Made by a program: the position numbers and the translations under genes
The notes under the pieces: generated by a model
Database searches by the model: none
Told to the model about the DNA's origin: nothing
What the model saw: the letters and a program-made list of their open reading frames with translations, nothing else
Shown here: positions 3,749 to 61,202 of the stretch, in pieces
How positions within the stretch are numbered: position 1 is the first letter of the stretch
Layout of the letters: every line of letters begins with the position of its first letter
NCBI GenBank assembly: GCA_034667725.1
Contig: JAXDQS010000010.1
Span: forward strand, 217,937 to 281,936
Source of the DNA: Thermoplasmata archaeon
Lineage (GTDB): Archaea > Thermoplasmatota > E2 > JACPAO01 > JAHFTW01
Length of the DNA stretch: 64,000 nucleotides
Direction of reading: 5' to 3'

Positions 3749-4954
3749 ATGCGCATGCACCCGCGACCGACATTGAAGCTCCGCCTGCCCTCTGCTGCCC
3801 TGCCGCTGCTGCTCCTGCTGTCCTCCGTGGGCCTGGCCGCCCCCGTCGCTGCGGAGGAATCGCCCCCGGCCGGCTGCGCCCCCACCGGCCTCAGCGGCTT
3901 CTACCAGGACGACGTCGTGTACCTGCAATGGGACGCGACCGCGGGCGCCACGGCCTACGACCTCTACCACGACCCCGGCGACGGCGAACTGGTGTACTTC
4001 ACCACCGTCTATGCGCCCGAGACGCAGACCTACGACCCCACCGTCGTGGCCGGGCGCACCTACCGCTACCTTGCCACCGCCTACGTGGACGGCATCGAGA
4101 CCCAGAGCTGCGGCCCCATCTCCGTGACGACCACGGCGCCGCCCTGCGCTCCCCAGGACTTCACCGCCACGGGCCAAAGCGACGGCATCCTGCTCCAGTG
4201 GACCGCGACGGAGGGCGCGACCCAGTACGACATCTACCGGTGGGACGACACCGACCCCGGCGGGCAGCTGCTGGCGAGCGTGCAGCCGCCCGCCACCCAG
4301 TACTTCGACGGGCAGACCGTCCCGGACGTCTGGTACTGGTACGGCGCGGTGGCCATCGTCGACGGCGCCACGACCGACGGCTGCGGCAGCGTGGTCGCCA
4401 AGATGGACACGTCCGAGACGGGGCCGGCCCCTGACCCGAACGTCTGCGCCCCCGCCGACTTCACGGCGACCCCCATCGGCAGCTTCGTGCAACTCTCCTG
4501 GACCGCCACCGTCAACGCCTCGCAGTACAACATCTACCGCGCCCGCGAGGACGGCGCGTTCCGCCTCGTCATCCTGGGCGACGCCAGCACCACCTCCACC
4601 ATCGACACCCAGGTCGAGGCGCAGACGACGTACCACTACTACGCGACCGCGGAAGGCGGCGGCGTCGTGACCCCGAGCTGCGGCATCGTGACCGTGACGA
4701 CCCAGGGCGAATGCTCCCCGATGCTCACCGTCACGCGCGGCGACGGCGTCAACCACCTGGAGTGGGGCTTCCTGCCCGCGGCGGAGCACTACAACGTGTA
4801 CGTGGGCAAGAACCCGCGGCACATGACGCTCCTGGCCTCGGTGTTCAACGGCAACGAATACCACCACACGGTTCACGACCCCAAGGCCAAGCTCCACTAC
4901 GAGGTGCGCGCGGTGGTGGACGGCGAGGAGAGGCCGGCCTGCAACACCGCCTGA
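3749..4954 (+). CDS. Secreted protein with four FN3/Ig-like ~85-aa repeats
   Basis: Signal peptide (MRMHPRPTLKLRLPSAALPLLLLLSSVGLAAPVAA). Four repeats each start CAP/CSP and contain an aromatic (Y/W)-(D/N)-(I/L/V)-Y-(H/R/V) motif. Start codon approximate. Confidence 0.55.
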   Translation: MRMHPRPTLKLRLPSAALPLLLLLSSVGLAAPVAAEESPPAGCAPTGLSGFYQDDVVYLQWDATAGATAYDLYHDPGDGELVYFTTVYAPETQTYDPTVVAGRTYRYLATAYVDGIETQSCGPISVTTTAPPCAPQDFTATGQSDGILLQWTATEGATQYDIYRWDDTDPGGQLLASVQPPATQYFDGQTVPDVWYWYGAVAIVDGATTDGCGSVVAKMDTSETGPAPDPNVCAPADFTATPIGSFVQLSWTATVNASQYNIYRAREDGAFRLVILGDASTTSTIDTQVEAQTTYHYYATAEGGGVVTPSCGIVTVTTQGECSPMLTVTRGDGVNHLEWGFLPAAEHYNVYVGKNPRHMTLLASVFNGNEYHHTVHDPKAKLHYEVRAVVDGEERPACNTA

Positions 4955-12608: not shown

Positions 12609-13004
12609 ATGATGCCTGGAATGGGCGACACCCGCCAGATGGCCGCCATGATGAAGCGCATGGGCATCGAGATGCGCGACGTCGAGCAGGTCGAGGAGGT
12701 CGTGGTGCGCACCGCCACCAAGGAGTACCGCTTCAAGCGGCCCGAGGTGTCGATCATGAAGGCCCAAGGCCAGGAGACCTGGCAGATTCAGGGCAAGGCC
12801 GTCGCGTCCGACCGGGCCGGCGCCGCCGTGCCCCCGCCCGCCGTGCCTTCCGTGTCCTCCGCTCCTGCCGCGCCTTACGCCCCCTCGCCCGACGACGTCA
12901 AGGTCGTCATGGAGGCAGCCAAGGTCCCCGAGGCGAAGGCCTGCGAGGCGCTCCTGGCCACCGGCGGCGACCTGGCCGAGGCCATCCTGCGGCTGTCCGC
13001 CTAG
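12609..13004 (+). CDS. nac: Nascent polypeptide-associated complex protein (archaeal NAC alpha) with C-terminal UBA-like domain
   Basis: MMPGMGDTRQMAAMMKRMGIEMRDVEQVEEVV... matches the archaeal NAC N-terminus; C-terminal tail has the UBA-like AKACEALLATGGDLAEAILRL. Confidence 0.8.
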   Translation: MMPGMGDTRQMAAMMKRMGIEMRDVEQVEEVVVRTATKEYRFKRPEVSIMKAQGQETWQIQGKAVASDRAGAAVPPPAVPSVSSAPAAPYAPSPDDVKVVMEAAKVPEAKACEALLATGGDLAEAILRLSA

Positions 13005-13008
13005 AGAC

Positions 13009-13223
13009 GATTTCAAAATTCCAAGTGGCCTGCGCGCGCCGGTTTGCAAGGAGTGCAAGGAAGGCCGCAATCCGCCGCAAAGCGGCGCGCCCTTCGGGGC
13101 GGTTTGCCGCCCCCCAATACGGCGTCAGGGGGTCCTTGGCGGGCCTCCAGCCCGCCGGCGGACCCCCTTCCTTGGACTGCGATGGCCGGAAACCGCCGCA
13201 GGCCTTCTTGGAATTTTGAAATC
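13009..13223. repeat. ~215-bp imperfect palindromic element with AT-rich 17-bp terminal inverted repeats (MITE-like or structured RNA)
   Basis: GATTTCAAAATTCCAAG at 13009-13025 is the exact reverse complement of CTTGGAATTTTGAAATC at 13207-13223. Further arm pairing GGCCTGCG/CGCAGGCC, CGGTTT/AAACCG, CAAGGAAGG/CCTTCCTTG; internal hairpins GCCGCaaaGCGGC and CGCCCttcgGGGCG. Confidence 0.5.
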
Positions 13224-13228
13224 ATCTC

Positions 13229-14752
13229 TTAGGCCGTTTCGGCCTGGTCCGCCGCCAGCTGCCGGTCCCGGCTGCGCTGCACGAAGAACATCGGCACGCC
13301 GGCCAGGATCAGGCCGGACGCGATCAGCGCCTGCGCGAGGAACTTGAAGTAGATGATGCCGACCACGAACGCCGAGGCCGCCATGAACAGCAGCGGCACG
13401 AACGGGTAGAGCGGCGTCTTGAACGGGCGCTCGACGTCGGCGTGGGTGCCCTTGATCCCCAGCCATGGGACGCCGCGCATCCGGACGTGGGCCCACGAGG
13501 TCGGCACGTAGAACAGGAAGATGGCGAACACCACCATGATGACGAGCTGCTCGTAGCCGCCGGTCATCACGAGCAGGCTGGCCCAGATGGCGGTGAAGTA
13601 GATGGCCCACCCCGGGACCGAGTGCTTGTTGAGCGTGCCCATCGAGCCTAGCAGGCTGCCGTCGCGGCTGAAGGCGTAGAACACGCGGGGCCCCGTCAGC
13701 AGGAAGCCGTTGACCGTGCCGAACACCGACACGAGGGCGACGGCGCTGATGAAGTCGTAGCCGCCGATCCCCAGCACGGCGCCTGCCGCCTCGGGGGCGA
13801 TGCGCTGGTTGGCGACCCCAAGCTCGACCGCCCGGTCGATGGGGATGACGTGGAAGTAGCTCGACGCCAGCGCGATGTAGATGGCGCTCGTGATGAGCGG
13901 GCCGACGATGAGTGCCACGGGCAGGTTGCGCCGGGCGTTGCGGACCTCGGAGGCGACGTAGGTGGCCTGCGGCCAGCCGTCGAACGCGAACAGCGACAAC
14001 GCAAGGGCGCCGCCGAACGCGGCCACGAGGGCGCCGCCGCCCATGCCCTCCGGCGCGAAGCCGCCGCCTTGGGCCTGGTAGGCCTGCGGGTGGGCGGTGC
14101 CGAACACGAACACGATGACGACCAGGCTGGCCAGGCCCAGCACCTTGGCGATGGTGCTGACGTTCTGGATGCGGCCGGCGATGGCGGCGCCGCGCGAGTT
14201 GATGAACGCCAACAGCAGGATGACGGCGATGGCCAAGAACGCAGGCCCGTAGGCGGGGATCGTGATGGGGTCGATGTGGACCAGCTTGCGGGTGCAGGCG
14301 CCGGCGAGGCTCTCCTCGACGCAGGGGCCGGTGTCCACGAGGCTCGTGAGGGCGAACTTCGTGCCCGGCATCGTGCCGCCCATACGCTCGACGAAGTAGG
14401 TGGCGAACCGGCTGAACGCCACCGCGACGCCGGCGATGATGCCGCTCTGGATGACCCAGAACTGCGACCACCCGAACAGGTAGGCGCTGAACCGGCCGAT
14501 GCCCTCCTTGAGGAAGTGGTACTGGCCGCCGGCGCGCGGGAACATGCTCGACAGCTCCGCGAACGTCAAGGCACCCAGCACCGTCAGCACCGCGCCGGCC
14601 ACCATCACCAAGAGGATGAGGCCCGGGCTCGGCAGCACCTCCGCCATGTCCGCGGGCAGCAGCAGGATGCCGGAGCCGATCATCGAGCCGACGATGATCG
14701 TGATGGCCTCGAACAGCCGCAGGTTCTGCTTGAACTTGATAGGCCCGCCCAT
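13229..14752 (-). CDS. Amino acid permease (APC superfamily transporter)
   Basis: 507 aa, ~12 TM segments, typical APC N-terminal region (ITIIVGSMIGSGILLLP...FAELSSMFPRAGGQYHFL). Confidence 0.75.
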   Translation of the reverse strand: MGGPIKFKQNLRLFEAITIIVGSMIGSGILLLPADMAEVLPSPGLILLVMVAGAVLTVLGALTFAELSSMFPRAGGQYHFLKEGIGRFSAYLFGWSQFWVIQSGIIAGVAVAFSRFATYFVERMGGTMPGTKFALTSLVDTGPCVEESLAGACTRKLVHIDPITIPAYGPAFLAIAVILLLAFINSRGAAIAGRIQNVSTIAKVLGLASLVVIVFVFGTAHPQAYQAQGGGFAPEGMGGGALVAAFGGALALSLFAFDGWPQATYVASEVRNARRNLPVALIVGPLITSAIYIALASSYFHVIPIDRAVELGVANQRIAPEAAGAVLGIGGYDFISAVALVSVFGTVNGFLLTGPRVFYAFSRDGSLLGSMGTLNKHSVPGWAIYFTAIWASLLVMTGGYEQLVIMVVFAIFLFYVPTSWAHVRMRGVPWLGIKGTHADVERPFKTPLYPFVPLLFMAASAFVVGIIYFKFLAQALIASGLILAGVPMFFVQRSRDRQLAADQAETA

Positions 14753-19265: not shown

Positions 19266-21383
19266 ATGCGTCCAGCGATGCTGCTTCCAGCCTTGGCCCT
19301 GGTGGGCCTGGGGCTTCTCACGATGATCCCGCACGAGGCCCAGGCCCAGGCGGTCATCGACAACGGCTTCGTCCAGGTCGGCGTCCGCGCCGACGGCGCC
19401 CTCATCGCCTCCCCGGTCTCGACCGACGGCGACTGCACCGTCGTCGGCGGCGTCACGGTCTGCACCGGCGGCGCCGGCACGGGCCTGGTCGGCCTGCGCC
19501 ACATGGCCACCGGCTACGAGTCGACGGCCGACGGCTGCGCCTGCGAGACCTGGGGCGTGTCGTACGACGGCGCCGTGTCGGGCTACGCCCGCAGCGGCAG
19601 CGCCGGCCCCGGCTCCGGCCTCACGCCGGTGGCGTTCTCGAACACCGCCAGCACCGCCGTGGCCACCGTGCGCGCCGGCGACCTGCTGGTCACCCACGAC
19701 TTCCACCCGACGGCACTCACCAACGACCTGTACGAGGTCAACGTCACCATCGAGAACACCGGCCCCGCCCACGTCGACCTGCGCTACCGCCGCGCCATGG
19801 ACTGGGACATCCAGCCCACCGCCTTCAGCGAGTTCGTCACCATCGAGGCCAAGAGCCCGCTGCCGACCGCGCTGTCCTGCTCCAGCGACGACGGCTTCGC
19901 CACCGGCAACCCCCTCAGCGGCCTCGGCTCGATCCTGATGTACGGCCCCGGCTGCGGCTCCGACTTCATCGACTCCGGCCCGAGCGACCACGGCGCCGCC
20001 TTCGACTTCCACTTCGGCGTCATCGCGGCCAGCGAGAAGCGCGAGTTCCGCATCTACTACGGCGCCGCCTCCTCCGAGATCGACGCCTACGCCGCCATGG
20101 CCGCGGTGGGCGCCGGCGTCTGGACCTTCGGGCAGTGCAACCCGGGCAGCAACCCCGCCTGCGACACCAGCACGGGCGCGCCGGCCACCTTCATGTTCGG
20201 CTTCGACGACGTCGACATCATCCCGGTCAAGCCCGCCAACATCCCGCCCGTCGCCGCCGGCACCTACCTCGCCCGCACCGCCTGCGAGGACTCCCGCGTC
20301 TCGTTCGACGGGAGCAAGAGCACCGACCCCGACGGCTTCGTCCGCACCCACGCCTGGACCTTCGGCGACGGCGGCAACGCCACCGGCGAGAAGGTCGACC
20401 ACCTCTACAAGGCGCCGGGCCCCTACACCGTGACGCACACTGTGATGGACAACAACGGCGCCCTCACCACCCGCACCTTCACCATCGTGAGCGCCGGCGA
20501 CCCCGACTGCTGCCTCAACCTCAACCCGGTCCCGCCCATCGACGCGATGGAGTTCGACGCCGTCGGCTTCCTGCCCATCGTCTGGGACTTCGAGGACGGC
20601 CCCTACAGCTTCGACCTGTTCCCGCTGCCGACGGGCGCCACCTTCAACCCCGCCACCGGAGAGTTCGGCTGGCCCACCGCGGCCGGCGACGCTGGCGCCT
20701 ACACCCTCACCCTGCTGGCCACGGACGGCGGCGGCTGCACCGTCGGCACCGAGGTCGACATCGCCGTCCGCCCGTACCCGCCGCCGCTGCCGCCCGCCGA
20801 GGACCATGACCTCGACGGCATCGCCAACGCGCAGGACAACTGCCCCGACCGCGTCAACCGCGACCAGGGCGACGCCGACCGCGACGGCCTCGGCGACCTG
20901 TGCGACGACGACCCCGGCCTCACGGGCCCGGAGGCCGAGGCCGCGCGCCGGCTGCGCGCCGGCGGCGCGCGCGACCGCGACCGCGACGGGGTCGCCGACG
21001 TGGCCGACGTCTGCCCCGACGTGGCCGACCGCGACCAGAAGGACCTCGACGGCGACCGCCTCGGCGACCTGTGCGACCCGGACGCCGACGGCGACACGGT
21101 GCGCGACCAGCCCGCCGCCGGCATCCCGGCCGACAACTGCCTCCAACTGGCCAACGCGGACCAGGCCGACGCGGACGGCGACGGCGTCGGCGACGCCTGC
21201 GCCGCCGACCGCCTCGCCGCCGCCCAGGCGCGCAGCAGCGACGCCGAAGGCCGGCCCGCCGTCCTGGCCGCCGAGCAAGGCGGCCTCGGCTCGGGCGCCA
21301 AGGCGTTCATGCTGGCGTTCGCCGCCGCAGGCCTCCTGGGCCTGCTGGTGGTCTTGGCCATCCTGCGCCGCAACGAAGCGTAG
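19266..21383 (+). CDS. Surface protein with PKD domain, Ig-like domain, TSP3 calcium-binding repeats and C-terminal TM anchor
   Basis: Signal peptide; PKD motif (FDGSKSTDPDGFVRTHAWTFGDGGNATGEKVDHLYKAPGPYTVTHTV); Asp-rich DxDxDGxxDxxDNCP repeats; C-terminal AFMLAFAAAGLLGLLVVLAILRRNEA. Paralogous to 57188..59221 and 61203..63659. Confidence 0.6.
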   Translation: MRPAMLLPALALVGLGLLTMIPHEAQAQAVIDNGFVQVGVRADGALIASPVSTDGDCTVVGGVTVCTGGAGTGLVGLRHMATGYESTADGCACETWGVSYDGAVSGYARSGSAGPGSGLTPVAFSNTASTAVATVRAGDLLVTHDFHPTALTNDLYEVNVTIENTGPAHVDLRYRRAMDWDIQPTAFSEFVTIEAKSPLPTALSCSSDDGFATGNPLSGLGSILMYGPGCGSDFIDSGPSDHGAAFDFHFGVIAASEKREFRIYYGAASSEIDAYAAMAAVGAGVWTFGQCNPGSNPACDTSTGAPATFMFGFDDVDIIPVKPANIPPVAAGTYLARTACEDSRVSFDGSKSTDPDGFVRTHAWTFGDGGNATGEKVDHLYKAPGPYTVTHTVMDNNGALTTRTFTIVSAGDPDCCLNLNPVPPIDAMEFDAVGFLPIVWDFEDGPYSFDLFPLPTGATFNPATGEFGWPTAAGDAGAYTLTLLATDGGGCTVGTEVDIAVRPYPPPLPPAEDHDLDGIANAQDNCPDRVNRDQGDADRDGLGDLCDDDPGLTGPEAEAARRLRAGGARDRDRDGVADVADVCPDVADRDQKDLDGDRLGDLCDPDADGDTVRDQPAAGIPADNCLQLANADQADADGDGVGDACAADRLAAAQARSSDAEGRPAVLAAEQGGLGSGAKAFMLAFAAAGLLGLLVVLAILRRNEA

Positions 21384-21438
21384 CCGAAAAAATCGAAGGA
21401 AACGGAAGGAAAAGGGAAGAAGGGAATGTCAGCTTGGC
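21384..21438 (-). terminator. T-rich/pyrimidine-rich tract downstream of the minus-strand gene
   Basis: Minus-strand reading ...cattcccttcttcccttttccttccgtttccttcgattttttcgg directly after the stop of 21439..22041. Confidence 0.3.
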
Positions 21439-22041
21439 TCAGAACAGGCTCGCGACCCCGGACACCATGCCGGAGAAGAACGCCTCGACCTGGCCCATGA
21501 AGCTCGCGTCGGCCTCGACGTCCGCCTGGGCGTCGACCGAGGCGTCCGCCTGCAGGCCCGCGTCGAGCTGGGCGTCGGCCGCGACGTCCGCGTCGACCGC
21601 CGCGTGGGCGTCCGCGGCCACGTTGGCGGCCGCGTCGAGCGCGCCGTCGACCGTGCCGTGGACCGTCGACTGGGCGGTCGCGGTGGCGGTGCCGGCCAGG
21701 CCGAGGCCCGTGCCGAGGGCACCGGTGGCGGTCGCCTGCGCGTCCGCCGTCACGTCGGCCGCGGCGTGGGCCGCGGCGTCGAGCTGGGCGTCGGCGTCGA
21801 CGCTGGCGTCGAGGGCCGCGTCGAGGTTGGCGTCGACGTTGGCGTCAAGGCTGGCGTCCGCATCCGCGGCGGCGTCCAGGCCAGCGTCCGCGGCGGCGTC
21901 GGCGGCAGCGTCCGCCGCGCCGGTCGCGCCGAGGCCGAGCATGGCCGTGCCCGGGATGGCCAGGGCCAGCAGGGCAGTCAGGGCAAGGGCAGCAAGGCCC
22001 GCCTTCTTCCAGGGTTTCTTGGGGGTGTGTTGGGGTTCCAT
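21439..22041 (-). CDS. Ala/Asp-rich low-complexity secreted protein
   Basis: Signal peptide after the internal Met (MEPQHTPKKPWKKAGLAALALTALLALAIPGTA), then ~150 aa of D-A-rich degenerate repeats; hydrophobic C-terminus. Confidence 0.4.
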   Translation of the reverse strand: MEPQHTPKKPWKKAGLAALALTALLALAIPGTAMLGLGATGAADAAADAAADAGLDAAADADASLDANVDANLDAALDASVDADAQLDAAAHAAADVTADAQATATGALGTGLGLAGTATATAQSTVHGTVDGALDAAANVAADAHAAVDADVAADAQLDAGLQADASVDAQADVEADASFMGQVEAFFSGMVSGVASLF

Positions 22042-22252
22042 CGGGGTCACCTTGTCTCCTGGTCCGACGGCGCGGCACATAAGGCGACGCGATACGCCGG
22101 GAAACTCCCAGCACCTCCTCAGGCAGGCTTATCTACGAACCATCCTGAGCCGGCCCCCGACGCCTGTGCCGGGTCCCCCCGGGTCGGTCGTTGAAAGATG
22201 AAGGAGGGCGGGGCGCCACCGCGGCCCAAACTCCCTATGGAGACAGACAACT

Positions 22253-23281: not shown

Positions 23282-23294
23282 GCGCGCGCCAGCG

Positions 23295-23328
23295 CCTCCT
23301 TTTTCCCTCTCCTTCCTCCCCTCTTTTG
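23295..23328 (+). terminator. Pyrimidine-rich T-tract after the ribosomal protein operon
   Basis: cctcctttttccctctccttcctcccctcttttg shares the CTCCTTTTTCC core with the tracts at 2041 and 28070. Confidence 0.3.
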
Positions 23329-28057: not shown

Positions 28058-28095
28058 GCCCGTTCCCCCTCCTTTTTCCCCGCTTCGTCTTCCGC
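28058..28095 (+). terminator. Pyrimidine-rich T-tract between the KA-rich gene and uvrB
   Basis: gcccgttccccctcctttttccccgcttcgtcttccgc with the shared CTCCTTTTTCC core. Confidence 0.3.
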
Positions 28096-33835: not shown

Positions 33836-35119
33836 ATGGAGGAGGCGGCGCCCACCGAGAGCCCCTTGCCGGGCGCCGGCGCCAAGGGCAAGCCGGTGCG
33901 CGTCCACCCCTACGCGCTCGAGCTGTCCACGGCCGCCGAGCTGCGCCGCGACCCGCGCATGGTCACCCTGTTCTGGGCCGGCCTGGGCACGGCGCTGGTG
34001 CTGCTGGGATTGGGGCTCGCCAACCGCTTCAGCCCCTGCCTGAACGGCGTCGGCCCCGAGCCCTGCGCCACCCCCGCGGCATGGACCAGCTGGGTCCAGC
34101 TTCCCCTGTTCGGCGGCCTTGCCCTGCTGGGCTTCGGCTTCGTGCAGCGCCAATGGGCCCGCCGCGTCACGCTTGCCGGCTGGCTGCTGTTCGGGTTCTA
34201 CTGGGCGCTCACCGCGCAGGACCTGTTCGTGGCCGAGGGCGGCGACATCGTCAACCTCTGCTTCGCCATCGTCGGCGTCTACTTCTTCGTCTACCTGGCC
34301 TACCACCAATGGCTCTCCGAGGCGCGCGGCATCGAGAACCTCACCGTCCGGTTCCTCAACATCGCCACCTTCGTCGCCGCCGGCTCCTACTTCGTCATCG
34401 ACAAGATCGAGCCGGTCCGCAAATGGCTCATCCTCACCGTCAGCCGCCACACCGAATGGATGCTGGGGCTGTTCGGGCAAGGCGCCGACGCCGGCCTCCG
34501 GGCCGTCTACAACCCCGCCGGCAGCACGAGCGACTTCCAGGCCGACCTGGCCCGCTTCTACTACGAGGGCCACCTCAACCACTGCCCCTCGCAGCCGAGC
34601 GACTGGTTCTCCAGCCTGATGCACTGGGACCCGTTCGCCCGCCAAGCCCTCGACGCCTGCCGCGACTTCTCGGCCCACGAGGCCGTCATCGTCCCCGTCT
34701 CGATCATCCTGGCCTGCACCGCCCTCCAGTCCATCATGCTGTTCGTCGGCCTGTTCATGGGCACCCCGGCCCCATGGAAGCGGCGCCTGCTGGCGTCGGC
34801 CATCGTCGCCGCCGTCGTGTACGTCCTCAACCTGCTGCGGAACACCGGCATCGTGTGGTTCTACGGCCAAGGCGAGGCCTCGTTCTGGATGATGCACGAC
34901 GCCGTCGGCAAGGGCGGCAGCCTGGTCGCCATGATCCTCATCGCGTTCGCCGCCTTCGCCTGGTTCCCCGAGTTCCTCAAGGCGCTCGTCGGCGTGCTGG
35001 ACCTGCCGCACCGCGACGGCCCCATCGAGCGCACGCTGCGCCTTGGCAGGCGGCGGCCCGACCAAGGCGCGCCGCCAGCGGAGCCGCCGGCCGAGACGCC
35101 GGCACCCCCCGTCCACTGA
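33836..35119 (+). CDS. Polytopic membrane protein, candidate exosortase/archaeosortase-family enzyme
   Basis: 427 aa, ~8 TM helices. Cys293 sits in a TM helix (SIILACTAL) and NLLRN lies 42 residues later, reminiscent of the archaeosortase catalytic Cys/Arg arrangement recalled from the literature. Family assignment is tentative. Confidence 0.4.
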   Translation: MEEAAPTESPLPGAGAKGKPVRVHPYALELSTAAELRRDPRMVTLFWAGLGTALVLLGLGLANRFSPCLNGVGPEPCATPAAWTSWVQLPLFGGLALLGFGFVQRQWARRVTLAGWLLFGFYWALTAQDLFVAEGGDIVNLCFAIVGVYFFVYLAYHQWLSEARGIENLTVRFLNIATFVAAGSYFVIDKIEPVRKWLILTVSRHTEWMLGLFGQGADAGLRAVYNPAGSTSDFQADLARFYYEGHLNHCPSQPSDWFSSLMHWDPFARQALDACRDFSAHEAVIVPVSIILACTALQSIMLFVGLFMGTPAPWKRRLLASAIVAAVVYVLNLLRNTGIVWFYGQGEASFWMMHDAVGKGGSLVAMILIAFAAFAWFPEFLKALVGVLDLPHRDGPIERTLRLGRRRPDQGAPPAEPPAETPAPPVH

Positions 35120-35177
35120 AGGCGGGGTCGCGCCCGGCCTCCGATTTAATCATTTGCGCTCTGGGCCAGTGTTGGAC

Positions 35178-38100
35178 ATGGGCTGCAAACGGTCAAGAAG
35201 GCACGGCGGTCGCTGGGCCTTGACAATGGTCGTCCACCGCTTGTCCCCGCTCGCCGCTGCCTTCATCCTGGCAGTCTCCACCCTCGCCGCCGCGCCGGCG
35301 TCGGCCCTCATCGTCGGCCCCGTCGGCCCCATCGACCCCGACCTCATCAACGTAGACTGCGAGGACAGTGCCGCCGTTAGGGCCGCCTGCAACGCGGTGG
35401 CCACCCTCACGGAGGACCCTGGCGAGATCACCGTCGGGTGCGGCGACGGGTACGCCGGCAACGCCTGCCGCGAAGCCTTGGACACCCTCGAGGACCCGCC
35501 CGCGGCCTGCGAGGCCGTCACGTTCGCGATCTGCGAGGCGGTGGCCCGGCTGCTGGCCGACGACGGCGGCGACCCCGTCGGCCAGTGCCTGCACGACCTC
35601 GGCTTCGACACCGTCGTGATGCCCCAGCCCGGCACCAGCATCGTCAACCTGGACTGCTCGCAGCTTGGCGAGACCCTGGCGAGCCTCTACGTCATCCTGG
35701 ACAACCTGGCGGCGCGGGGCGGCGCCACCCTGAACTCCTGCCTGGCGCTGTTGGGCGACGGCATTGCCAACCTGGAGTCGAGCGGCCCGCCACTGGTGGA
35801 TTGCGAAGGCCTCGGCGAGACCGCCCGCGACACCGTCCAGGCCGCCATGGACCTGGTGGACCGCGAAGCCGACGACGCCATGCGCACCGTCGAGGCGTGC
35901 GTCTACGGCGCGCCCCCGCCGTCCGCCGGCGCCGCGCTGTGCCGCTCCCTCTACAACACGCTCGTCCTCTACCTCGCCTTCGCCGTCCAGACCGGCCTCC
36001 AGGCGGCCAACCACCAGCTTGAGTGCCAAGGCCTCGACACCGTCTCCATCACGGCGCCCGCCCCCGAGGGCGACCCGCCCGCCACCTTCGGCCTGCCGGA
36101 GGAGTGCGTGACCGCCCACCTGCTCTTGACCGCCGTCCAGGAGGCCGTCGCCAACGTGCTGCGCATCGCCGGCGACCTCGCGCCCTCCGTCTCGCTCTGT
36201 GTCGCCGAGGTCCCCGGCGGCCCCACCACCGTCACCCTCGACTGCCGCTACGTCGAGCGCGTCGTGCGCACCGTCGGCGACGCCGAGGCCACCGTCATGC
36301 TCGTCGTGCAGCAATACCTCGACGACTGCCAAGGCCGCGGCGCGCCCCCCGAGGGCCTGCCGAGCTGCCGCGAGCAGGTCGAGAACCTGCAGCGCATCGT
36401 GGACCGCAACTTCGCCGGCGCCTGGCGTGCCGCCCAGGAAGCCGCCGCCGACCTGCAGGCCTGCGCCGCGGCCGCCGCCGCGAGCACCTGCGCGGCCACG
36501 CAAGACTGCGCCCTGCTGCCCTGCGTCCTGCCCGGCGCCTGCGACACCGGCTGCGCCAGCAACGGCACCACCTCCTACCCGGCGCGCGCCAACGGCACCG
36601 CCACCGACGCCCGCATCGGCAACGTCTTCGAGTTCGTGGCCCCCGTCACGGGCGCCGCGGTCCCGGTCGACGTCCACGACTACGACGGGGACGGCATCCC
36701 CGACCTGCTGGACCCCGTCAACCTCCCCTCCGAGACCCTGCGCACGACCTCCGGCGCCGACAACCTGACGCTGCTGGACGGCCTCGGCGAGCAAGGCTTC
36801 GTCCTCTTGATCGAGCCCGGCCACCGGGAGGCCCAGCTCGTGGCCGCCGACCCGCTCGGCGTGGCCCTGTCGCTGCTGCCCGTCGAGGTGCTCGACGCCG
36901 CCACCACCCTCCAGCTTTTGGGCCAGACCCACGGCGGCCACGTCGCCGACCTGCTGGCCAGCGCCCTCAACGAGAACATGACGGTGAACGTCACCTGGGT
37001 CGTCCCGCAGCTGCCCACCGTCGTCCCCCTGCATTGGGCCGGCGGCGCCATCCCCGCCGACGGCAGCTGGCTCATGGCCCGCTCCGACCCGACCCGCCGC
37101 GTCACGTTGGCGCTCTCCGGCCTTGACGTCAAGCTGGAGGCCCCCAGCGCCAGCCACGCCAGCACCGACCCCGACCTGTCGTACCGCTGGGAGTTCCTCA
37201 ACCTCTGGGGCAAGAAGGGCTTCTGCTTCGACCCCACCACCTACACCGGCGGCACCGGCCAGTGCGAAGGCAAGGCCGAGCCCGGCTGGCTGCGCGCCTA
37301 CAGCGGCCGCGCCCACTACGCCCTCCAGGCCGTCGCCGAGAACCTGGAGCGCGGCCTGTCCGACCTGGCGGCGACCCCGGCGGGCACCAACGGCACCGCC
37401 CTGGAGCCCATCCTGGCGCCGACCGAGGGCCTGCGCGGCGACGAGGTCCCCGCCGACGCCATCGACCTGTTCGACCCCTCCTCGCTGGTGCACGCCATCG
37501 GCGACAACAGCACCTCGTTCCCGCCCGGCGTCGGCGTCGACTACCAGGTCCCGGCCCGCGAGCCGCGCTCCCTGCCGCGCCCCGCCATCCTGCAAGCCCC
37601 CGACGCCCTGCTCACGACCGACGTGGACCTGTCGGCCTACCGCCCGACGCGCACCTTCCGCTTCGACGCCCAGTTCTACGAGACCCCCGGCACGCCGCGC
37701 GACCTGCAGCTGCTGACGCTGCACATCACGCCGGCCGACGGCAACGACGCCGCCCAGACCTTCGTGCTCGACGGCCGCGCCTTCACGGAGTACCTGCGCC
37801 TGCTGCCCGGCGAGCAGCTCGCCCTCGATATCGACGCCGATCACTTGGACGGCTTCGTCCAGGTCTCCAAGGACGTCAACGCCGACGGCTGGGAGGACCT
37901 CGTCGTGCAGGTGCCCCACTTCAGCACCGTCACCATGGACGTCCACAGCGACAACTCGATCGCCTACCCCATGTGGACCATGGTCAAGATGACCAGCGCC
38001 ACCGAGGGCTGGCTCACCGGCCCTTACGGCGCCATGTACAAGTACAGCGCCGGCCGCGTCTACCGTCACGACATCCCCGGCCTCGCGGGCCAGATGCGCT

Positions 38101-41100
38101 CCATCGCGCTGCACGTCGTCGGCCCCAACGACGTCTGGGTGGCGGGCGACGGCGACTGCAACCTCGCCGACCCGTCGCCGTTCATCGCCCACTACTACTA
38201 CGGCAGCTGGAGCATCTTCCGCACGTCGCAGGTCGGCCCCGGCTGGGCCTGCGAGGGCTTCATCACCATCTGGATGGACCCCACCGGCTCCTTCGGCTAC
38301 GCGGGCGGCACCGACGGCATGTGGTTCAAGTACGCCAGCGGCGCGTGGAACCCCGCCCCCAGCCCCGCGCCCGGCGCCTGCGTCCGCGACATCGCCTTCG
38401 ACAGCAGCGGCCGCGGCTACGTCGGCGCCAACACCGACTTGTGCCTGGCCAGCGGCCGCCCCGCCATCAGTTACTGGGACGGCAGCTCGTGGAGCAGCCA
38501 CAGCACCTACGGCAGCACCGAGATCTGGAGCGTCATGGACGGCTCCGGCCAATGGGCCGCCGCCATTCCCAAGGACCCGGCCACCCACGGCATCCTGCAA
38601 CAGTCCGGCTCGTCCTGGTCCCTCGCCTCCGTCCCCGTTCCGGCGGGCCATTACTACGGCATGACGCGCGCGCCCGACAGCCGCCTCTGGTTCAGCGCCA
38701 CCGACCGCAGCAACCGCGGCTTCCTGGTCGAACGCGACCCGTCCGGCACCTGGACGACGCACTGGTTCCAGACCCGCATCGGCTTCCTGCGCGACGTCTC
38801 GATGTCGTCCAGCACGGCGGGCCTCGTCGTCGGCGACAAGAACATCCTGGCCATCCAGGTCTCGTCGGCCGCCGCCGCCTCCGCCGACTGGATCTGGGAC
38901 AGCCTGTCGCCGACCTCCGGCACCACCAGCACGACGTTCGCCGGCCGCGACTCCGGCACCCGCGACCCCGACAGCGGCAGCGGCACCGTCGCGCACACCT
39001 GGAACTGGGGCGACGGCTCGGCCAACGACCTGGCCGCCAACGCCGACCACGTCTACCAGGCGCCCGGCACCTACGCCGTCACCCACCAGGTGCGTGCCAG
39101 CAGCACCGGCCAGGCCAACGCGCACGGCTGGACCGTCACGGTGAACCCCCAGTCCACCAGCATCGGCCCCAGCACCTCGGACTCGCTGCCCGCCGGCACC
39201 CGCGTGGCCCCGAAGTACTACCAGTACACCAACGCGGCCAGCGACGGCCAGGCGCATGACTTCCGCGTCGTGCTCGGCGGCGCTGCCGGCGTCAAGATGA
39301 CGATCCGCAAGGGCACCGGCATGGGCGACTTCAGCGCCGGCGGCAACTGGCCCAACTACGGCGCCGCCGGCCGCGACCTGTCCGGCCCCATCGCCTACGG
39401 CCAGTCCATCACCATCCGGGTCGAGCAGGACACCAGCGTGAGCCCCTACGGCGGCTCCTACACCCTCACGGTGACGCAGCTGCCGCCCCCGCCCAACCCG
39501 GCCTTGAGCAGCCTGGTGCCGCAGCCGATGGAGGCGCTGACCCGCGGCTACGAGGAGCTGACGTTCCGCGTCACCTGGACCGACACGCAAGGCTACCAGC
39601 CCCGCGACGCCAGCGGCGCCACCAGCCCGCCCACCATCACGCTGGACACCAACGGCGACGGCGCCCTGGAGACCTACTCCATGCACCTGGACCGGCCGCT
39701 GTTCACCGGCTCCACCTACAAGGCGATCTACTCGTACTCGACCTACCTCAAGGAAGGCAGCGGCACCCAGCCGATCTACAAGGCTTGGGACACGCAGCCC
39801 TACCAGCAGGTCGCCACCGGCGCCTGGATCTACGCCCGCGCCACCGTCCTCAAGGCCTACGACTTCGAGGCCGACGCCGTCGACCGCCTCCCGGCAGGCT
39901 TCGCCAACGTCCCGCTGGCCGGCCACCCGGTGAGCTACTGGCACGTCACCGACACCGCCAAGGCGGGCACGCCCGACCGCGTCGCCTTCGGCGCGCACGG
40001 CAAGGCCCTCTGGTTCGGCCAGGAGTCCTCCGGGAACTACGTCGACGCCGACGGCCGCGCCCCGGGCGGCGCCCTCGAGACGCCGGTGCACGACCTGAAC
40101 CGCATGGACAAGCCGGTGCTGTCGTTCGCGTCGCTCTACGAGACCCAGGACGACGGCAGCAGCATCGACGTCAAGCAGGTCCACATCAAGGCCCGCGACC
40201 CCGGCGGCGTCTGGGGCGGCTGGGTGCTGCTGCAGGCCGTCCACGGCCCCGGCTTCCTGCCCGGCCGCTGGAACACCGTGGCCGCCAGCCTCGCCGACTA
40301 CGCCGGCAAGGAGGTCGTGCTGCGCTTCCAGTTCCAGGCCGACAACGCCAACAACGGCTACCTCGGCTGGTACGTCGACGACATCGTGCTCGGCAGCGAC
40401 GCCGACGGCGACCTGATCCCCGACCTGAAGGAGGCCAACCGCGTCATCGGGCTCCGCAACGGCGCCGTCGGCCCCGTCAACGTCGCCCCCGGCCAGACCG
40501 GCGCCAGCTACGTCAACCGCGTCAGCACCTCCGGCTTCCAGGGTGTCGTCGCCGAGGCCGTCCTCTACTCCGAGCGGCCGCAGGACCTGCGCGTCGAGCT
40601 GCTGGTGCCGCCGGCGGGCACGCTCCCCGGCGACTTCCCCGCGCTCACGACCGAATTCCGGCCGTTCAAGCTGAACCCGGCCGCGGCGCCCGCCACCGAC
40701 ACGGTGTGCGGCGTCACCAGCCCGGTGCGCAACTCCCTGTCGCCCTGGTACGCGACCTACCCGAACCTGCTCTTGGACCCCGCCACCGGCTTCGACAACC
40801 CCCGCATCGGCGGCGGCTTCGGCCCCGACTCGCGCCCGACCGTCGTGCCGATCCACGCCCTGGAGTTCAAGCGGGTCGACGGCGTCGGCCTTGCCATCAA
40901 GGCGGACCTCACCGAATGCCTCAAGGCCGCCGGCTTGAGCGAGTTCGGCGTCCACGACGTCGTGCTGCGCGTCCAGAACACCGCCGCCTCCGGCACCGCG
41001 ACCATCGAGTCGTTCGCGGTCACCGGCGTCGGCCGGTCGTCGATGTTCAGCGCCCGCAGCGCCGCCATCGGCATGGGCGACTACCGCGCCAGCGACGGCG

Positions 41101-42806: not shown

Positions 42807-43938
42807 CCGCGCCCTCTTGGCCGTCGCGGCGGCGCTGCTGCTGGCCGGCTGCCTGGGGTCGGTGGACGACGGCAGCCAGGCCCCGCCGCCGGACGCCTGC
42901 GCGGACGGCGTGCCGCCGTGCGTCCGCAACGCCGACGCCGAGCTGCTGGAGGCCAAGTACGGCTTCCGGCAACTCAGCAACGGCACCGGCCGGCCGCTCC
43001 AGCCGTGGGTCACGAACGGCTTCGCCGGCTGGTCGGTGTTCTACTCGGACGCCTCCCCCCGCGTGGACCTCGCGGCGCGGACCCTGGCGGAAGATGACGA
43101 CGACGGCGCGGCCCGCGGGCTCACGCTGGCGGCCGGCGGCAAGGTCGCCTACACCTTGACGCCGCTGGCCAACGACGCGCTCGACCACGCCCACGCCCGC
43201 CTGCTGCTGCAGGACGCCGCCACCGGCGAGGCCACGCCCCTCGTGGAGGACCGCGGGCTGTATCCTCGCGCCTTCGGCCCGCCGTGGCTGCTGCTGCAAG
43301 AAGACAAGGGCGACGGCGCGCCGCGCGACCTCTGGGCCCTCCACGTCGAGACGCGGGCGCTGCAACTGGTCTCCGACCGCAGCGGCGAGGCCCACGGCGG
43401 CCCCGTCGTGACCGGCCACGCCGTCGCCGGCCACCACGCCGTCTGGGCCGAGGCCGAGCCCCAGCCGGACGGAAGCTTCGCCTACTCGGTGCGCACCCGC
43501 GACCTGGAGGCCCAAGCCGACGGCCCGACGTTCCGCGTCGCCGGCGGCGGCGAGGTCGACTGGATCGCCAGCACCGGCGCCGCCGCGGCCATCCTGGTCG
43601 GCCACGACGCGGGCGCCGACCTTTTGCTCTTCGACCCCGCCACCGGCCAGGCACGCCCGCTGGGCCCCGAGCCCGGCTGGAACGCGGTGCTCGCCGCCGC
43701 GGGCGGCGGCGCCGTCGTCGTGGCCGAGCGCCGCGGCGACGACGAGGCCCGGCTGCGCCTCATCCGCGCCGACGGCACGTCGGAGGCGCTGGCGGACCTG
43801 GAGGAGCTGGCGGTGGCGTCGATGGCCACCGACGGCCACGACCTCGTGCTGGTGGCCTACGCGTCGCCAAGCCGCGGCCTGCGCTACGAAGGCACCCAGG
43901 TCTACTGGAAGCCGCTCGACCTCGGCAATCGCGCTTAA
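42693..43938 (+). CDS. Putative lipoprotein (beta-rich), start uncertain
   Basis: Lipobox LLLAGC after a basic n-region (TSRSRALLAVAAALLLAGCLG). The only upstream in-frame ATG (42693) overlaps the giant gene's 3' end by 113 nt in another frame; a TTG at 42816 is the alternative. Confidence 0.45.
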
Positions 43939-56897: not shown

Positions 56898-57154
56898 TCC
56901 AGTCGGCGGTGCGCGACGGGCCAGCGGCTCCAGGCGACCTGCACGGCCTTCGGTCCAACCCCCCTCGTGCCGCGCCACCGTCTCCGCGTACAGCTCCAGC
57001 TGCCGCAACAGCCGCCCGGCCGTGCCATGCGACAGGCCGCCCCGTTCGCGCCCCGCCCCCCCAACCTCGCGCGTGGCCCCAGCAACGGGAACCCCAAGCC
57101 CAAGGCCGAAAGTCGTAGCCGGCCCGCTGTCCGCCCAGGACGCCGCCTGCAATG

Positions 57155-57162
57155 CTTTATTT
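57155..57162 (+). promoter_or_regulatory. TATA-like box (within hairpin CCTGCAAtgctttatTTGCAGG), leaderless spacing to the ATG at 57188
   Basis: ctttattt centred ~30 nt upstream of the ATG that begins the signal peptide. Confidence 0.35.
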
Positions 57163-57187
57163 GCAGGACAGGGTGGTGACGCCCAGA

Positions 57188-61125: not shown

Positions 61126-61202
61126 CAAAAGGCAACGTTCTCGCAGGGTGCGCCGTCGCCTGCCTGCCAAGGTTCAAGAGCCGGAATCAAAATCCGGGGC
61201 TG

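Follow-up and report, generated by a model that had tools for sequence, protein, structure and literature searches.

The closest relatives in kind of the Asp/Ala protein analysed here are Paracoccus BapA and the staphylococcal Ser-Asp stalks, which are analogues and not homologues. According to PMC5588039, which cites Yoshida et al. 2017, BapA of Paracoccus denitrificans is a biofilm adhesin that leaves the cell by type I secretion and contains 891 Asp-Ala dipeptide repeats. It has a pI of 2.4, was detected by MS and is required for Ca2+-stimulated biofilm; most annotations missed it, the SEED annotation being the sole one to include it (PMC5588039, which also mentions Aspein). BapA comprises 2,211 aa. 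Its repeat consists purely of dipeptides, both termini form hydrophobic adhesin-like domains, the type I secretion signal is C-terminal, and the bapBCD secretion genes lie next to the gene. Asp alternating with small residues is likewise found in the eukaryotic Aspein/Asprich shell-matrix proteins and in the synthetic peptides RADA16-I and EAK16, all of them unrelated by descent to the archaeal protein; in-register carboxylates on one face have been suggested to bind Ca2+, or amphipathic beta-sheets to self-assemble. RADA-type peptides form beta-sheet fibres, and (Asp-Y)n sequences have been proposed as beta-sheet templates in shell matrix proteins. The use of RADA-type Arg-Ala-Asp-Ala peptides as self-assembling hydrogel scaffolds is described in PMC10113214.

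Within the window, i.e. the whole stretch of 64 kb that was analysed, an ORF of 200 codons on the minus strand (21439-22041) extends from an ATG (22041-22039) to a TGA stop (21441-21439), exactly at the coordinates of the initial annotation. It is a complete CDS of 200 aa plus TGA. Probably this is a small orphan gene of one uncultured Thermoplasmata archaeon, encoding a membrane-tethered, very acidic alternating protein. The JGI caller sets the start at ATG 22041 and the caller of the Logan assembly at GTG 22050 (203 aa). A longer form of 213 aa from ATG 22080, of which no collection holds a record, was rejected in favour of ATG 22041, because ATG 22080 lies inside a TATA-like box and has no Shine-Dalgarno-like site. 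The independent Logan assembly SRR24887408 is 100% identical over the whole spacer, so the repeat is no assembly artefact, and the data reached held one sequence version of the gene only. Exactly one NCBI accession number lies between those of the neighbours, MEA3191246.1 (PKD) and MEA3191248.1 (L7Ae), a gap that would fit one annotated gene at this place.

The protein is composed of a Lys-rich hydrophobic N-terminus, Asp/Ala block 1, a Gly/Thr hinge, Asp/Ala block 2 and an amphipathic C-terminus, with 33.5% Ala and 13% Asp overall. The N-terminus (residues 1-41; 21919-22041, minus strand, as all features of the gene) shows a KKPWKK n-region, a hydrophobic stretch (LAALALTALLALAIPGTAMLGL) and A-L-A at 26-28; the LAALALTALLALAIPGTAM stretch at residues 16-34, with a 19-residue Kyte-Doolittle mean of 2.02, is combined with this A26-L27-A28. 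It looks like a signal peptide, as the initial annotation had it, of the Sec type, or like an uncleaved N-terminal signal anchor. A lipoprotein is ruled out by the lack of Cys in the whole protein, since a lipobox needs an invariant Cys, and Tat export by the lack of RR in the N-terminus. Block 1 (residues 42-101; 21739-21918) is built from 4-aa (12-nt) units of the type (Asp/polar)-Ala-x-(Ala/Leu/Val) and contains 48% Ala and 25% Asp. The following hinge (residues 102-131; 21649-21738; QATATGALGTGLGLAGTATATAQSTVHGTV) is rich in Gly, Thr and Ala, has no Asp, mostly keeps the odd/even alternation and coincides with a break in the helix predicted by AlphaFold2; repeat analysis assigned residues 132-181 (21499-21648) to block 2. 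Ala and Asp make up 59% of residues 42-181, 73% of block 1 and 62% of block 2. The earlier description of the mature part as almost entirely Asp and Ala is overstated, in view of the Asp-free 30-residue hinge and of Leu and Val, which account for 15% of the repeats. Its polyanionic character was borne out: the mature part contains 29 Asp and Glu residues, Lys and Arg are lacking beyond residue 13, and the protein has a net charge of about -25. The C-terminus (FMGQVEAFFSGMVSGVASLF) is hydrophobic as described, at a moderate level (Kyte-Doolittle mean of 1.14 for the last 19 residues, MGQVEAFFSGMVSGVASLF; 21442-21498), and may form an in-plane membrane helix. These 19 residues show small-xxx-small spacing (S190/S194/S198, G191/G195) and no basic tail, and residues 181-200 have a hydrophobic moment of 0.32 at 100 degrees and 0.28 at 180 degrees. 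Archaeosortase substrates carry a C-terminal motif (PGF, PEF etc.), a transmembrane helix and a basic tail in that order; no PGF-type sorting motif and no Lys/Arg was found at the C-terminus (…FFSGMVSGVASLF).

The periodicity of the repeats is visible in DNA and protein. Autocorrelation of the DNA at lag 12 was 0.627, compared with 0.476 +/- 0.021 in codon shuffles (z = 7.3), and the protein periodicity at lag 4 reached z = 7.7 versus shuffles. TRF and a second repeat finder identified tandem arrays with a period of 12 nt and occasional 18-nt steps. Imperfect DNA repeats are real, as initially described, but their period is 12 (and 18) nt and not 12-15 bp. The ggcgtc basis of these degenerate repeats was confirmed, with the hexamer GGCGTC, the reverse complement of GAC-GCC (Asp-Ala), occurring 21.6 times per kb in the ORF versus 1.7 times per kb elsewhere in the window. 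A 69-nt stretch of block 2 (21560-21628) shares 80% identity with 21776-21844 in block 1, suggesting an internal duplication with an offset of 216 nt (72 aa). The DNA thus bears the marks of 12-nt (and 6/18-nt) slippage and of one larger internal duplication. The most striking regularity, absent from the initial annotation, is a strict two-residue alternation of polar and small hydrophobic residues that spans about 140 positions. Each of the 26 Asp, and also every Glu, Gln, Asn and His, occupies an even position, and all 22 Leu, Val and Phe of residues 43-181 occupy odd positions. Asp represents 38% of the polar residues in the alternating region. In the repeats the Asp-Asp spacings are all even and those between large hydrophobic residues almost all even; Asp-Ala dipeptides number only 22 and are embedded in the 4-residue units.

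Measured against the systems named above, the archaeal protein is a curiosity with known bacterial analogues and not a new kind of system. With BapA it has in common that it would be a prokaryotic surface protein with its bulk Asp alternating with Ala, extremely acidic and encoded by GAC-GCN repeats in a high-GC genome, and that the suggested role is Ca2+-dependent surface adhesion. In contrast to BapA it is only 200 aa long, carries a Sec-type signal or anchor at its N-terminus, repeats in a 4-residue super-period that includes Leu/Val, contains a Gly/Thr hinge and has no flanking domains; sequence homology is not demonstrated. Membership of the BapA type is also opposed by the 22 Asp-Ala dipeptides, by the N-terminal position of the signal and by the neighbouring genes, among which there is no ABC exporter or membrane-fusion protein. 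In NCBIfam only the Ser-Asp regions of SdrC, SdrD, ClfA and ClfB matched (E ~2-4e-5, residues 43-178). These matches (NF000535, NF012181, NF033609, NF033845) scored 21.5-22.7 bits versus cut-offs of 999-2500 and are confined to the repeat region of the models, and the sequence has no LPXTG. The likeness to Sdr/Clf proteins consists in an X-Asp dipeptide repeat generated by short-unit DNA slippage and in an acidic stalk leading from a membrane or wall anchor to the exterior, whereas the ligand-binding A domain, the B repeats and the LPXTG sorting signal are lacking in the archaeal protein. It also has no Sdg-type O-GlcNAc sites, because the alternating partner is Ala/Leu/Val and not Ser. A further comparison is offered by P0006, a high-GC bacterial lipoprotein with a low-complexity linker of the DAxLDA type (148 aa; …DASLDATLDASSDASLDASSDAALDAS…, followed by a Cys-rich domain), which displays the Asp-Ala-x-Leu motif after its signal peptide with 42% identity over 95 residues (E = 1e-3). 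There the repeat is a short linker (~40 residues) to a folded domain and comes with a lipobox Cys, whereas in the archaeal protein it forms the whole mature part and Cys is absent. Such linkers indicate that the Asp-Ala-x-Leu motif arises repeatedly in GC-rich genomes.

The real gene very probably lies in the minus frame, where the codon log-odds amount to +0.76 (+0.758) per codon, compared with 0.38-1.19 in 16 confident genes, while the two antisense frames score +0.09 and -0.53, like non-coding frames of real genes, and the six-frame codon profile of the locus is that of a real gene; the high score is partly circular, because the repeat consists of the genome's favourite codons (GAC, GCC, GCG). 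Neither Arg nor Cys occurs in the 200 residues, although the off-frames of the ORF stretch, with its GC content of 74%, are Arg-rich. The JGI and the Logan-assembly callers both chose this ORF, on two independent, identical assemblies. A GGTGA Shine-Dalgarno-like site (22047-22051; context AAGGTGACCCCGATG) lies 5 nt upstream of the ATG, and GGAGG or GGTG occurs at comparable distances before other genes in the window. Some 40 nt before the ATG, an AT-rich TATA-like box (CCTTATGT; 22077-22084) may represent the promoter; the amino-acid permease gene is preceded by a similar element, CCTTTATGC. Beginning 7 nt past the stop codon, a pyrimidine/T-rich tract (…TTCCCTTCTTCCCTTTTCCTTCCGTTTCCTTCGATTTTTTC; 21386-21432) resembles archaeal terminators; there are only four such tracts in the 64 kb, each on the sense strand just 3' of a stop codon. 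With its own Shine-Dalgarno-like site and terminator-like tract the gene is a putative complete transcription unit. Rfam and tRNA scans of the window gave no match, so the repeat is no known RNA.

At 72% GC long ORFs are cheap (153 of at least 150 aa in the 64 kb), and two of them, 20900-22201 with its Ala/Ser-rich frame and 20806-22194, are open on the plus strand across 21439-22041. That one of these is the real gene is hardly credible. Frame +1 also has a GC3 of 0.94, but only because its third codon positions are common to the minus frame (GC1/GC2/GC3 of 0.81/0.55/0.94); GC2 on the plus strand (0.81) exceeds GC1 (0.55), unlike in every confident gene of the window, and the codon scores of both plus frames are those typical of antisense shadows of real genes. 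Both ORFs begin within the PKD gene in other frames and extend across the promoter region of L7Ae, the terminator-like tract belongs to the opposite strand, and no gene caller picked them. The antisense gene considered in the initial annotation thus fails on codon scores, on the strand of the terminator-like tract and on the gene callers. Improbable, but well short of negligible, is that no functional protein is made. Gene callers would then have been misled by a GC-rich minisatellite of 12-nt units in an intergenic spacer, or the ORF would be a very young proto-gene, translated without a selected function if it is translated at all. No homologue was found, the gene is missing at the syntenic site in all relatives examined, and a collection of 15 billion proteins contains neither the exact 200-aa nor the exact 213-aa sequence; the sequence is of low complexity, high GC yields many long chance ORFs, indels of repeat units leave any frame open automatically, and the odd/even register could stem from the amplification of one 12-nt unit rather than from selection. 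Against this, the non-repetitive N- and C-termini show protein-like features, the n-region is rich in Lys and not in Arg, and a Shine-Dalgarno-like site, a sense-oriented terminator-like tract and the six-frame codon profile of a real gene are present. Moreover, codon changes of several steps (Leu CTC/CTG, Gln CAG, Thr ACC, Ser AGC) separate the repeat units, and yet in no unit does a charged residue fall on an odd position or a large hydrophobic one on an even position. The ratio of Val to Thr at the odd positions is 10 to 1, though both are single transitions from GCC. Finally, discounting the gene would leave an unusually long spacer of 870 nt, compared with 130-330 nt in relatives. Taking the minus-strand gene as real, lineage-restricted and encoding an exported, membrane-tethered Asp/Ala polyanion that binds cations or charges the surface, we regard this reading as a whole as about evenly balanced between right and wrong.

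The idea of a disordered spacer was not supported. In a charge-hydropathy (Uversky) plot residues 42-200 have a mean hydropathy of 0.542 versus a boundary of 0.477 (0.54 vs 0.48), and all sub-blocks lie on the ordered side as well. AlphaFold2, run without alignment on residues 2-200 (model numbering = protein numbering - 1), gave two long, confident helices at residues 30-112 and 119-199 (model 29-111 and 118-198) that break at the Gly/Thr hinge, with a pLDDT of 76.5, a pTM of 0.33 and a pLDDT of 83-94 in the repeats. Contrary to these helices, the pattern of the sequence itself is an amphipathic beta-strand signature: the hydrophobic moment is 0.54 (0.537) at 180 degrees versus 0.09 (0.093) at 100 degrees. 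A real exported protein may then not form a helical stalk but amphipathic beta-sheets like those of silk, chaplins or RADA16/EAK16, with an Ala/Leu/Val face and an Asp face; Ca2+/Mg2+ or low pH would neutralise and cross-link the sheets, resulting in a film on the cell surface, a fibre of the matrix or a template for mineral nucleation. We consider this possible, though doubtful. It draws on the perfect alternation over 139 residues, on the even spacings and on the hydrogel-forming RADA-type peptides; on geometric grounds, a period-4 stripe should be unable to keep to one face of an alpha-helix because it drifts by 40 degrees per repeat, and the sub-threshold Pfam match is to a beta-helical family, Bactofilin. 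AlphaFold2, with a pLDDT of up to 94 in the repeats, speaks against it, as do the strong helix propensity of Ala and Leu and the low beta propensity of Asp. The charges are all alike, without the complementary basic residues (Arg opposite Asp) that RADA16 has, and the blocks contain no Gly, Pro or Asn turn positions.

The Bactofilin match (PF04519; E = 2.3e-5; residues 109-187 vs profile positions 3-82 of 98) could be taken to indicate a diverged known filament, namely a bactofilin-like beta-helix or else a protein resembling type IV pilins, with a class III signal peptide (KKAG/LAAL…), but either is very unlikely. The score of 25.0 bits is below the gathering cut-off of 27.9 bits, the match falls in low-complexity alternating sequence, and bactofilins are cytoplasmic, whereas an export signal is predicted here. 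AlphaFold2 gives helices only and no beta-helix, a Foldseek search of the model against the PDB found no match, and phmmer against PDB sequences found nothing below E = 0.9. Canonical archaeal prepilins are cleaved at [K/R]-[G/A], followed by about 20 hydrophobic residues. The N-terminus corresponds to this in having basic residues, Gly and then ~22 hydrophobic residues (K12-K13-A14-G15, then L16…L37), but Ala precedes Gly15 where canonical prepilins carry Lys/Arg, so that the -2 position would be Ala upon cleavage after Gly, and no pilus or archaellum assembly genes are found among the called neighbours.

Returning to the exported polyanion, we infer that it binds cations or sets the surface charge. 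The N-terminal segment would carry the protein across the membrane and, by the positive-inside rule, probably keep it tethered. The two acidic blocks would make up an elongated projection whose fold-back at the Gly/Thr hinge could bring the amphipathic C-terminal segment to the surface of the membrane again. Lacking any basic residue as a counter-charge, the 26 in-register Asp carboxylates may bind divalent cations, which is plausible by analogy with the systems compared, and the bound or fixed charge would provide a negative surface charge or a hydration layer, or cation-bridged adhesion. If real and expressed, this would be a minimal natural Asp/Ala alternating polyanion (~160 mature residues) on an archaeal cell surface, and it could inform surface charge, cation capture or attachment in uncultured soil/groundwater Thermoplasmatota; its importance is modest, since it is a single-genome orphan of low-complexity sequence. 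As no Lys or Arg follows residue 13, the protein would be invisible to tryptic proteomics, and low-complexity filters easily lose such proteins, which is a practical warning.

On the sequence searches made, the gene is an orphan, seen in one genome only. A word-indexed homology search with the full protein revealed nothing significant among the 8,000 low-complexity candidates listed. A full HMMER scan of 1.84 billion cluster representatives detected six matches, all to unrelated repeat proteins (among them phage-fibre-like and silk-like sequences and a lipoprotein linker), and no homologue; we judged the six to reflect likeness of composition or period, not homology. The lack of HMMER homologues is weaker evidence than it seems, because the 200- and 213-aa versions, two of the three possible forms, are absent from the 15-billion-protein collection and the query did not recover its own sequence. 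Metagenomes were scanned twice, once with the full protein and once with a chimera assembled from its non-repetitive parts; among the 600 pattern matches listed there was no confirmed relative, and not even the source contig was recovered. Low-complexity matches flooded or saturated the searches for homologues and for loci, which weakens their negative results. A blastn match of the spacer to locus L006 (7390-7499) was dismissed as GC-rich chance similarity, as there is no comparable ORF at that place. That the gene arose from the thrombospondin-3 repeats, rich in Asp, of the adjacent PKD genes was likewise unsupported: the best blastn match had 63 bits, and codon-shuffled versions reached 48 +/- 4.7 bits with a maximum of 63 at the same places, so that the similarity is mostly shared codon composition.

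The locus was compared in 80 GTDB loci around L7Ae and in 10 further loci obtained via L7Ae variants of at least 90% identity. The gene is missing from the same locus in about 30 relatives. In the 80 GTDB loci, tblastn without complexity filter gave one weak match only (L018, E = 2e-4, in another gene context) and a six-frame composition scan detected no Asp/Ala repeat ORF; nor was the gene found in the 10 further loci, by called genes or by tblastn with the non-repetitive protein parts. The gene may have arrived or arisen recently, and together with the neighbouring PKD/thrombospondin-3 surface protein it would represent an insertion separating two genes that lie side by side in most relatives examined. 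It could be a clean case of gene birth by short-repeat expansion. We give little credence to the more far-reaching proposal that it was born recently by GAC-GCS-NNS-STC slippage beside a signal anchor, in a lineage-specific insertion, and yields a Ca2+/Mg2+-bridged beta-sheet film or mineral template as a minimal counterpart of silk or BapA. The called neighbours are the PKD/TSP3 protein and ribosomal proteins. In relatives with 80-97% identical L7Ae the gene order is NAC, h269, h115, Na/H exchanger, h479 and L7Ae, with a gap of 130-330 nt, or other genes, at the site of the PKD and Asp/Ala genes.

The Asp/Ala repeat ORF runs from ATG 22041 to TGA 21439 on the - strand (200 aa) and is flanked on both sides by + strand genes. 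The gene convergent with it (19278-21383, +) encodes a 701-aa surface protein that carries PKD, He_PIG and thrombospondin-3 (TSP3) domains and is anchored in the membrane at its C-terminus; the ribosomal operon L7Ae-S28e-L24e (from 22253, +) is divergent. The source is an uncultured Thermoplasmata/Thermoplasmatota archaeon; identical DNA is present in JGI metagenome 3300044738 (contig Ga0467041_0000015), and the neighbouring proteins in the NCBI MAG 'Thermoplasmata archaeon' are MEA3191245.1 (QOD77_1827), MEA3191246.1 (QOD77_1828), MEA3191248.1, MEA3191249.1 and MEA3191250.1. Over the whole 870-nt spacer, run SRR24887408 gives the same sequence in an independent Logan assembly, so the repeat is no assembly artefact. 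The gene is known from one sample only.

At the GC content of the window (66-78%) three of six frames are open across the region, as is usual for such GC, and the initial annotation had considered that the antisense frame could be the real gene. A codon model trained on 16 confident window genes, with their own five off-frames as background, gave the - frame +0.758 log2 units per codon (within the 0.38-1.19 range of the confident genes), a score that is partly circular since the repeat consists of favoured codons. The three + strand frames scored +0.09, -0.53 and -2.63 per codon, the same off-frame profile as in every real gene. GC1/GC2/GC3 of the - frame are gene-like (0.81/0.55/0.94; GC1 > GC2 << GC3), and the + frame sharing its third positions has the inverted order, GC2 > GC1. 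The product contains neither Arg nor Cys, and Lys accounts for all four of its basic residues, which lie between positions 8 and 13; the off-frames are rich in Arg. Both the JGI caller (start ATG 22041) and the Logan-assembly caller (start GTG 22050) chose the - strand, and the NCBI accession numbering appears to leave room for one CDS between the neighbours. Judged from such sequence features, the - strand ORF is quite likely a real gene; codon scores and GC1/GC2 order disfavour the antisense ORF, which is very improbable as a gene.

Upstream of the ATG lies AAGGTGACCCCG, which matches the archaeal anti-Shine-Dalgarno sequence well; other genes of the window carry GGAGG or GGTG at equal distance from their starts. 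About 40 nt upstream, an AT-rich CCTTATGT box resembling boxes before other genes lends weak support to a - strand gene. Starting 7 nt past the Asp/Ala stop, a tract of 47 nt (21386-21432, -) is rich in pyrimidines and T and has T4, T3 and T6 runs. With a criterion of at least 21/24 pyrimidines, at least 11 T and one T4 run, just four such tracts occur in the 64 kb, each in sense orientation and within ~20 nt past a stop codon; the other three (2027-2068, 23294-23327 and 28068-28093, +) lie directly 3' of + strand stops, including that of L24e. Such a tract after the stop is the expected appearance of archaeal oligo-T terminators. The tracts look like this organism's terminator signature, helpful for strand calls in a high-GC genome.

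The protein is composed of 33.5% Ala and 13% Asp over all 200 residues. The Asp/Ala-rich composition described in the initial annotation was confirmed for two blocks (Ala + Asp 73% in residues 42-101 and 62% in residues 132-181); the 30-residue Gly/Thr/Ala hinge between them has no Asp. The imperfect DNA repeats are likewise present, with a period of 12 nt and occasional 18-nt steps rather than the 12-15 bp claimed (lag-12 identity 0.627 vs 0.476 +/- 0.021 in codon shuffles, z = 7.3; protein-level lag-4 periodicity, z = 7.7). The hexamer GGCGTC, which reads GAC-GCC (Asp-Ala) on the opposite strand, reaches a density in the ORF 12 times that of the remaining window. Block 2 has a 69-nt stretch that shares 80% identity with one in block 1 at an offset of 216 nt, and therefore a larger internal duplication lies on top of short-unit slippage. 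A feature absent from the earlier description is a strict polar/apolar register: in residues 43-181 all 26 Asp and every Glu, Gln, Asn and His occupy even positions, and Leu, Val and Phe (22 together) without exception odd ones, where Ala/Leu/Val account for 63/70 residues (64 including the single Phe). The hydrophobic moment over this 139-residue stretch is 0.537 at 180 degrees/residue vs 0.093 at 100 degrees.

Residues 1-41 comprise KKPWKK followed by ~22 hydrophobic residues with Pro-Gly and A-L-A at 26-28. The signal peptide proposed earlier thus has Sec-type features, with an N-in signal anchor as the alternative, and the N-terminus is predicted to be one or the other; a lipoprotein or Tat signal was ruled out from sequence. 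Residues 42-181 form an alternating polyanion (net charge about -25). The hydrophobic C-terminus was borne out as moderately hydrophobic (residues 182-200), with small-xxx-small spacing and without a basic tail or sortase-type motif. Pfam returned Bactofilin alone, below threshold (25.0 vs 27.9 bits), and NCBIfam matches were confined to Ser-Asp repeat regions of staphylococcal adhesins (~22 bits vs cut-offs of at least 999).

We consider a putative exported, N-terminally tethered acidic surface protein most likely. The N-terminus would direct export and then tether the protein to the membrane, from which the two acidic blocks would stick out, turning back at the Gly/Thr hinge, with the C-terminal segment ending up on or in the membrane. 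In-register carboxylates could then take up divalent cations, resulting in fixed negative charge, hydration or cation-bridged adhesion. A precedent is Paracoccus denitrificans BapA: mass spectrometry confirmed the protein, and Ca2+-stimulated biofilm depends on it (PMC5588039). The protein may act like acidic X-Asp dipeptide-repeat surface proteins such as BapA, the Sdr/Clf SD regions and shell-matrix Asp-rich proteins; none of the features tested placed it within these groups. Unlike them, it is archaeal, very small and probably Sec-anchored; its repeats follow a 4-residue super-period that includes Leu/Val, a hinge lies at the centre, and there is no functional head domain.

The disordered spacer suggested initially is not supported by the charge-hydropathy plot, where the protein falls on the ordered side, or by AlphaFold2 (no alignment), which gave two long helices (residues 30-112 and 119-199) with pLDDT up to 94 within the repeats and a pTM of just 0.33; Foldseek found no match to this model. 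The polar/apolar dyad repeat, a hallmark of amphipathic beta-strands, argues against the helices, as a 4.0-residue period cannot hold one face along an alpha-helix. The main mechanistic rival to the tethered polyanion is Ca2+- or pH-dependent amphipathic beta-sheet assembly; the moment at 180 degrees speaks for it and the helical model against it. The chief sceptical alternative is that the ORF spans a minisatellite and is very young or has no function, against which the Shine-Dalgarno-like and terminator-like signals speak. A specialist would find little surprising in an acidic, low-complexity orphan from a high-GC MAG; the only unusual points are a dyad register that is perfect over ~140 residues and a possible origin by repeat expansion, with one sequence known.

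Word-indexed search found no homologues and was saturated with low-complexity word matches, which also flooded two metagenome scans that gave none; HMMER against 1.84 billion representatives returned unrelated repeat proteins only. A 15-billion-protein collection contains neither the exact 200-aa nor the exact 213-aa sequence, despite the 200-aa version being called by the JGI caller and a 203-aa version by the Logan-assembly caller. Homologues may be under-represented likewise, so that for such proteins 'no homologue' carries less weight. Synteny offers a cleaner route: relatives with 80-97% identical L7Ae share the gene order NAC, h269, h115, Na/H exchanger, h479, L7Ae, and their h479-L7Ae gap is 130-330 nt or occupied by other + strand genes. 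No such locus carries a divergent gene on the - strand or an Asp/Ala repeat ORF. The PKD/TSP3 and Asp/Ala genes thus constitute a ~3-kb lineage-specific insertion. In the relative's locus L002 the site is filled by two PKD/TSP3 paralogues and the repeat gene is absent. Derivation of the repeat DNA from Asp-rich TSP3 coding repeats is not supported, the similarity being due mostly to common codons.

An AT-rich 23-nt inverted repeat, AGAGACGATTTCAAAATTCCAAG, occurs at 13003-13025 and 13207-13229 (96% complementary, 181 nt between arms; two copies in the window vs none expected). Each arm adjoins a stop codon of the convergent genes NAC (12621-13004, +) and amino-acid permease (13229-14752, -). 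It has no match in Rfam; candidate explanations are a structured RNA, a bidirectional terminator and a MITE-like insertion. The giant ORF 35043-42806 (+; 2,587 aa), with one detectable PKD domain, is shadowed at equal length by an antisense ORF (35193-43013, -; 2,606 aa); ORF length says little at such GC. Among the collected loci, L036 (JAJPHT010000010.1), titled 'Proteobacteria bacterium isolate Centralia_MAG_189', carries an archaeal L7Ae 65% identical to that of the window; this MAG has probably been mislabelled or is contaminated. Several near relatives are named 'uncultured Halobacteriales archaeon' yet group with Thermoplasmatota loci.

Paralogous surface proteins with PKD, He_PIG and thrombospondin type-3 domains are encoded at 19278-21383, 57152-59221 and 60459-63659 (all +), the last also with an IgGFc_binding domain. 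The 19278-21383 copy, adjoining the Asp/Ala ORF and part of the insertion between h479 and L7Ae, ends in a hydrophobic anchor followed by Arg-Arg, as do the two L002 paralogues. One of these, upstream of L7Ae, contains ~50 consecutive Pro (L002 ~4320-4790; poly-Gly in antisense), a further extreme low-complexity insert within the PKD/TSP3 family.
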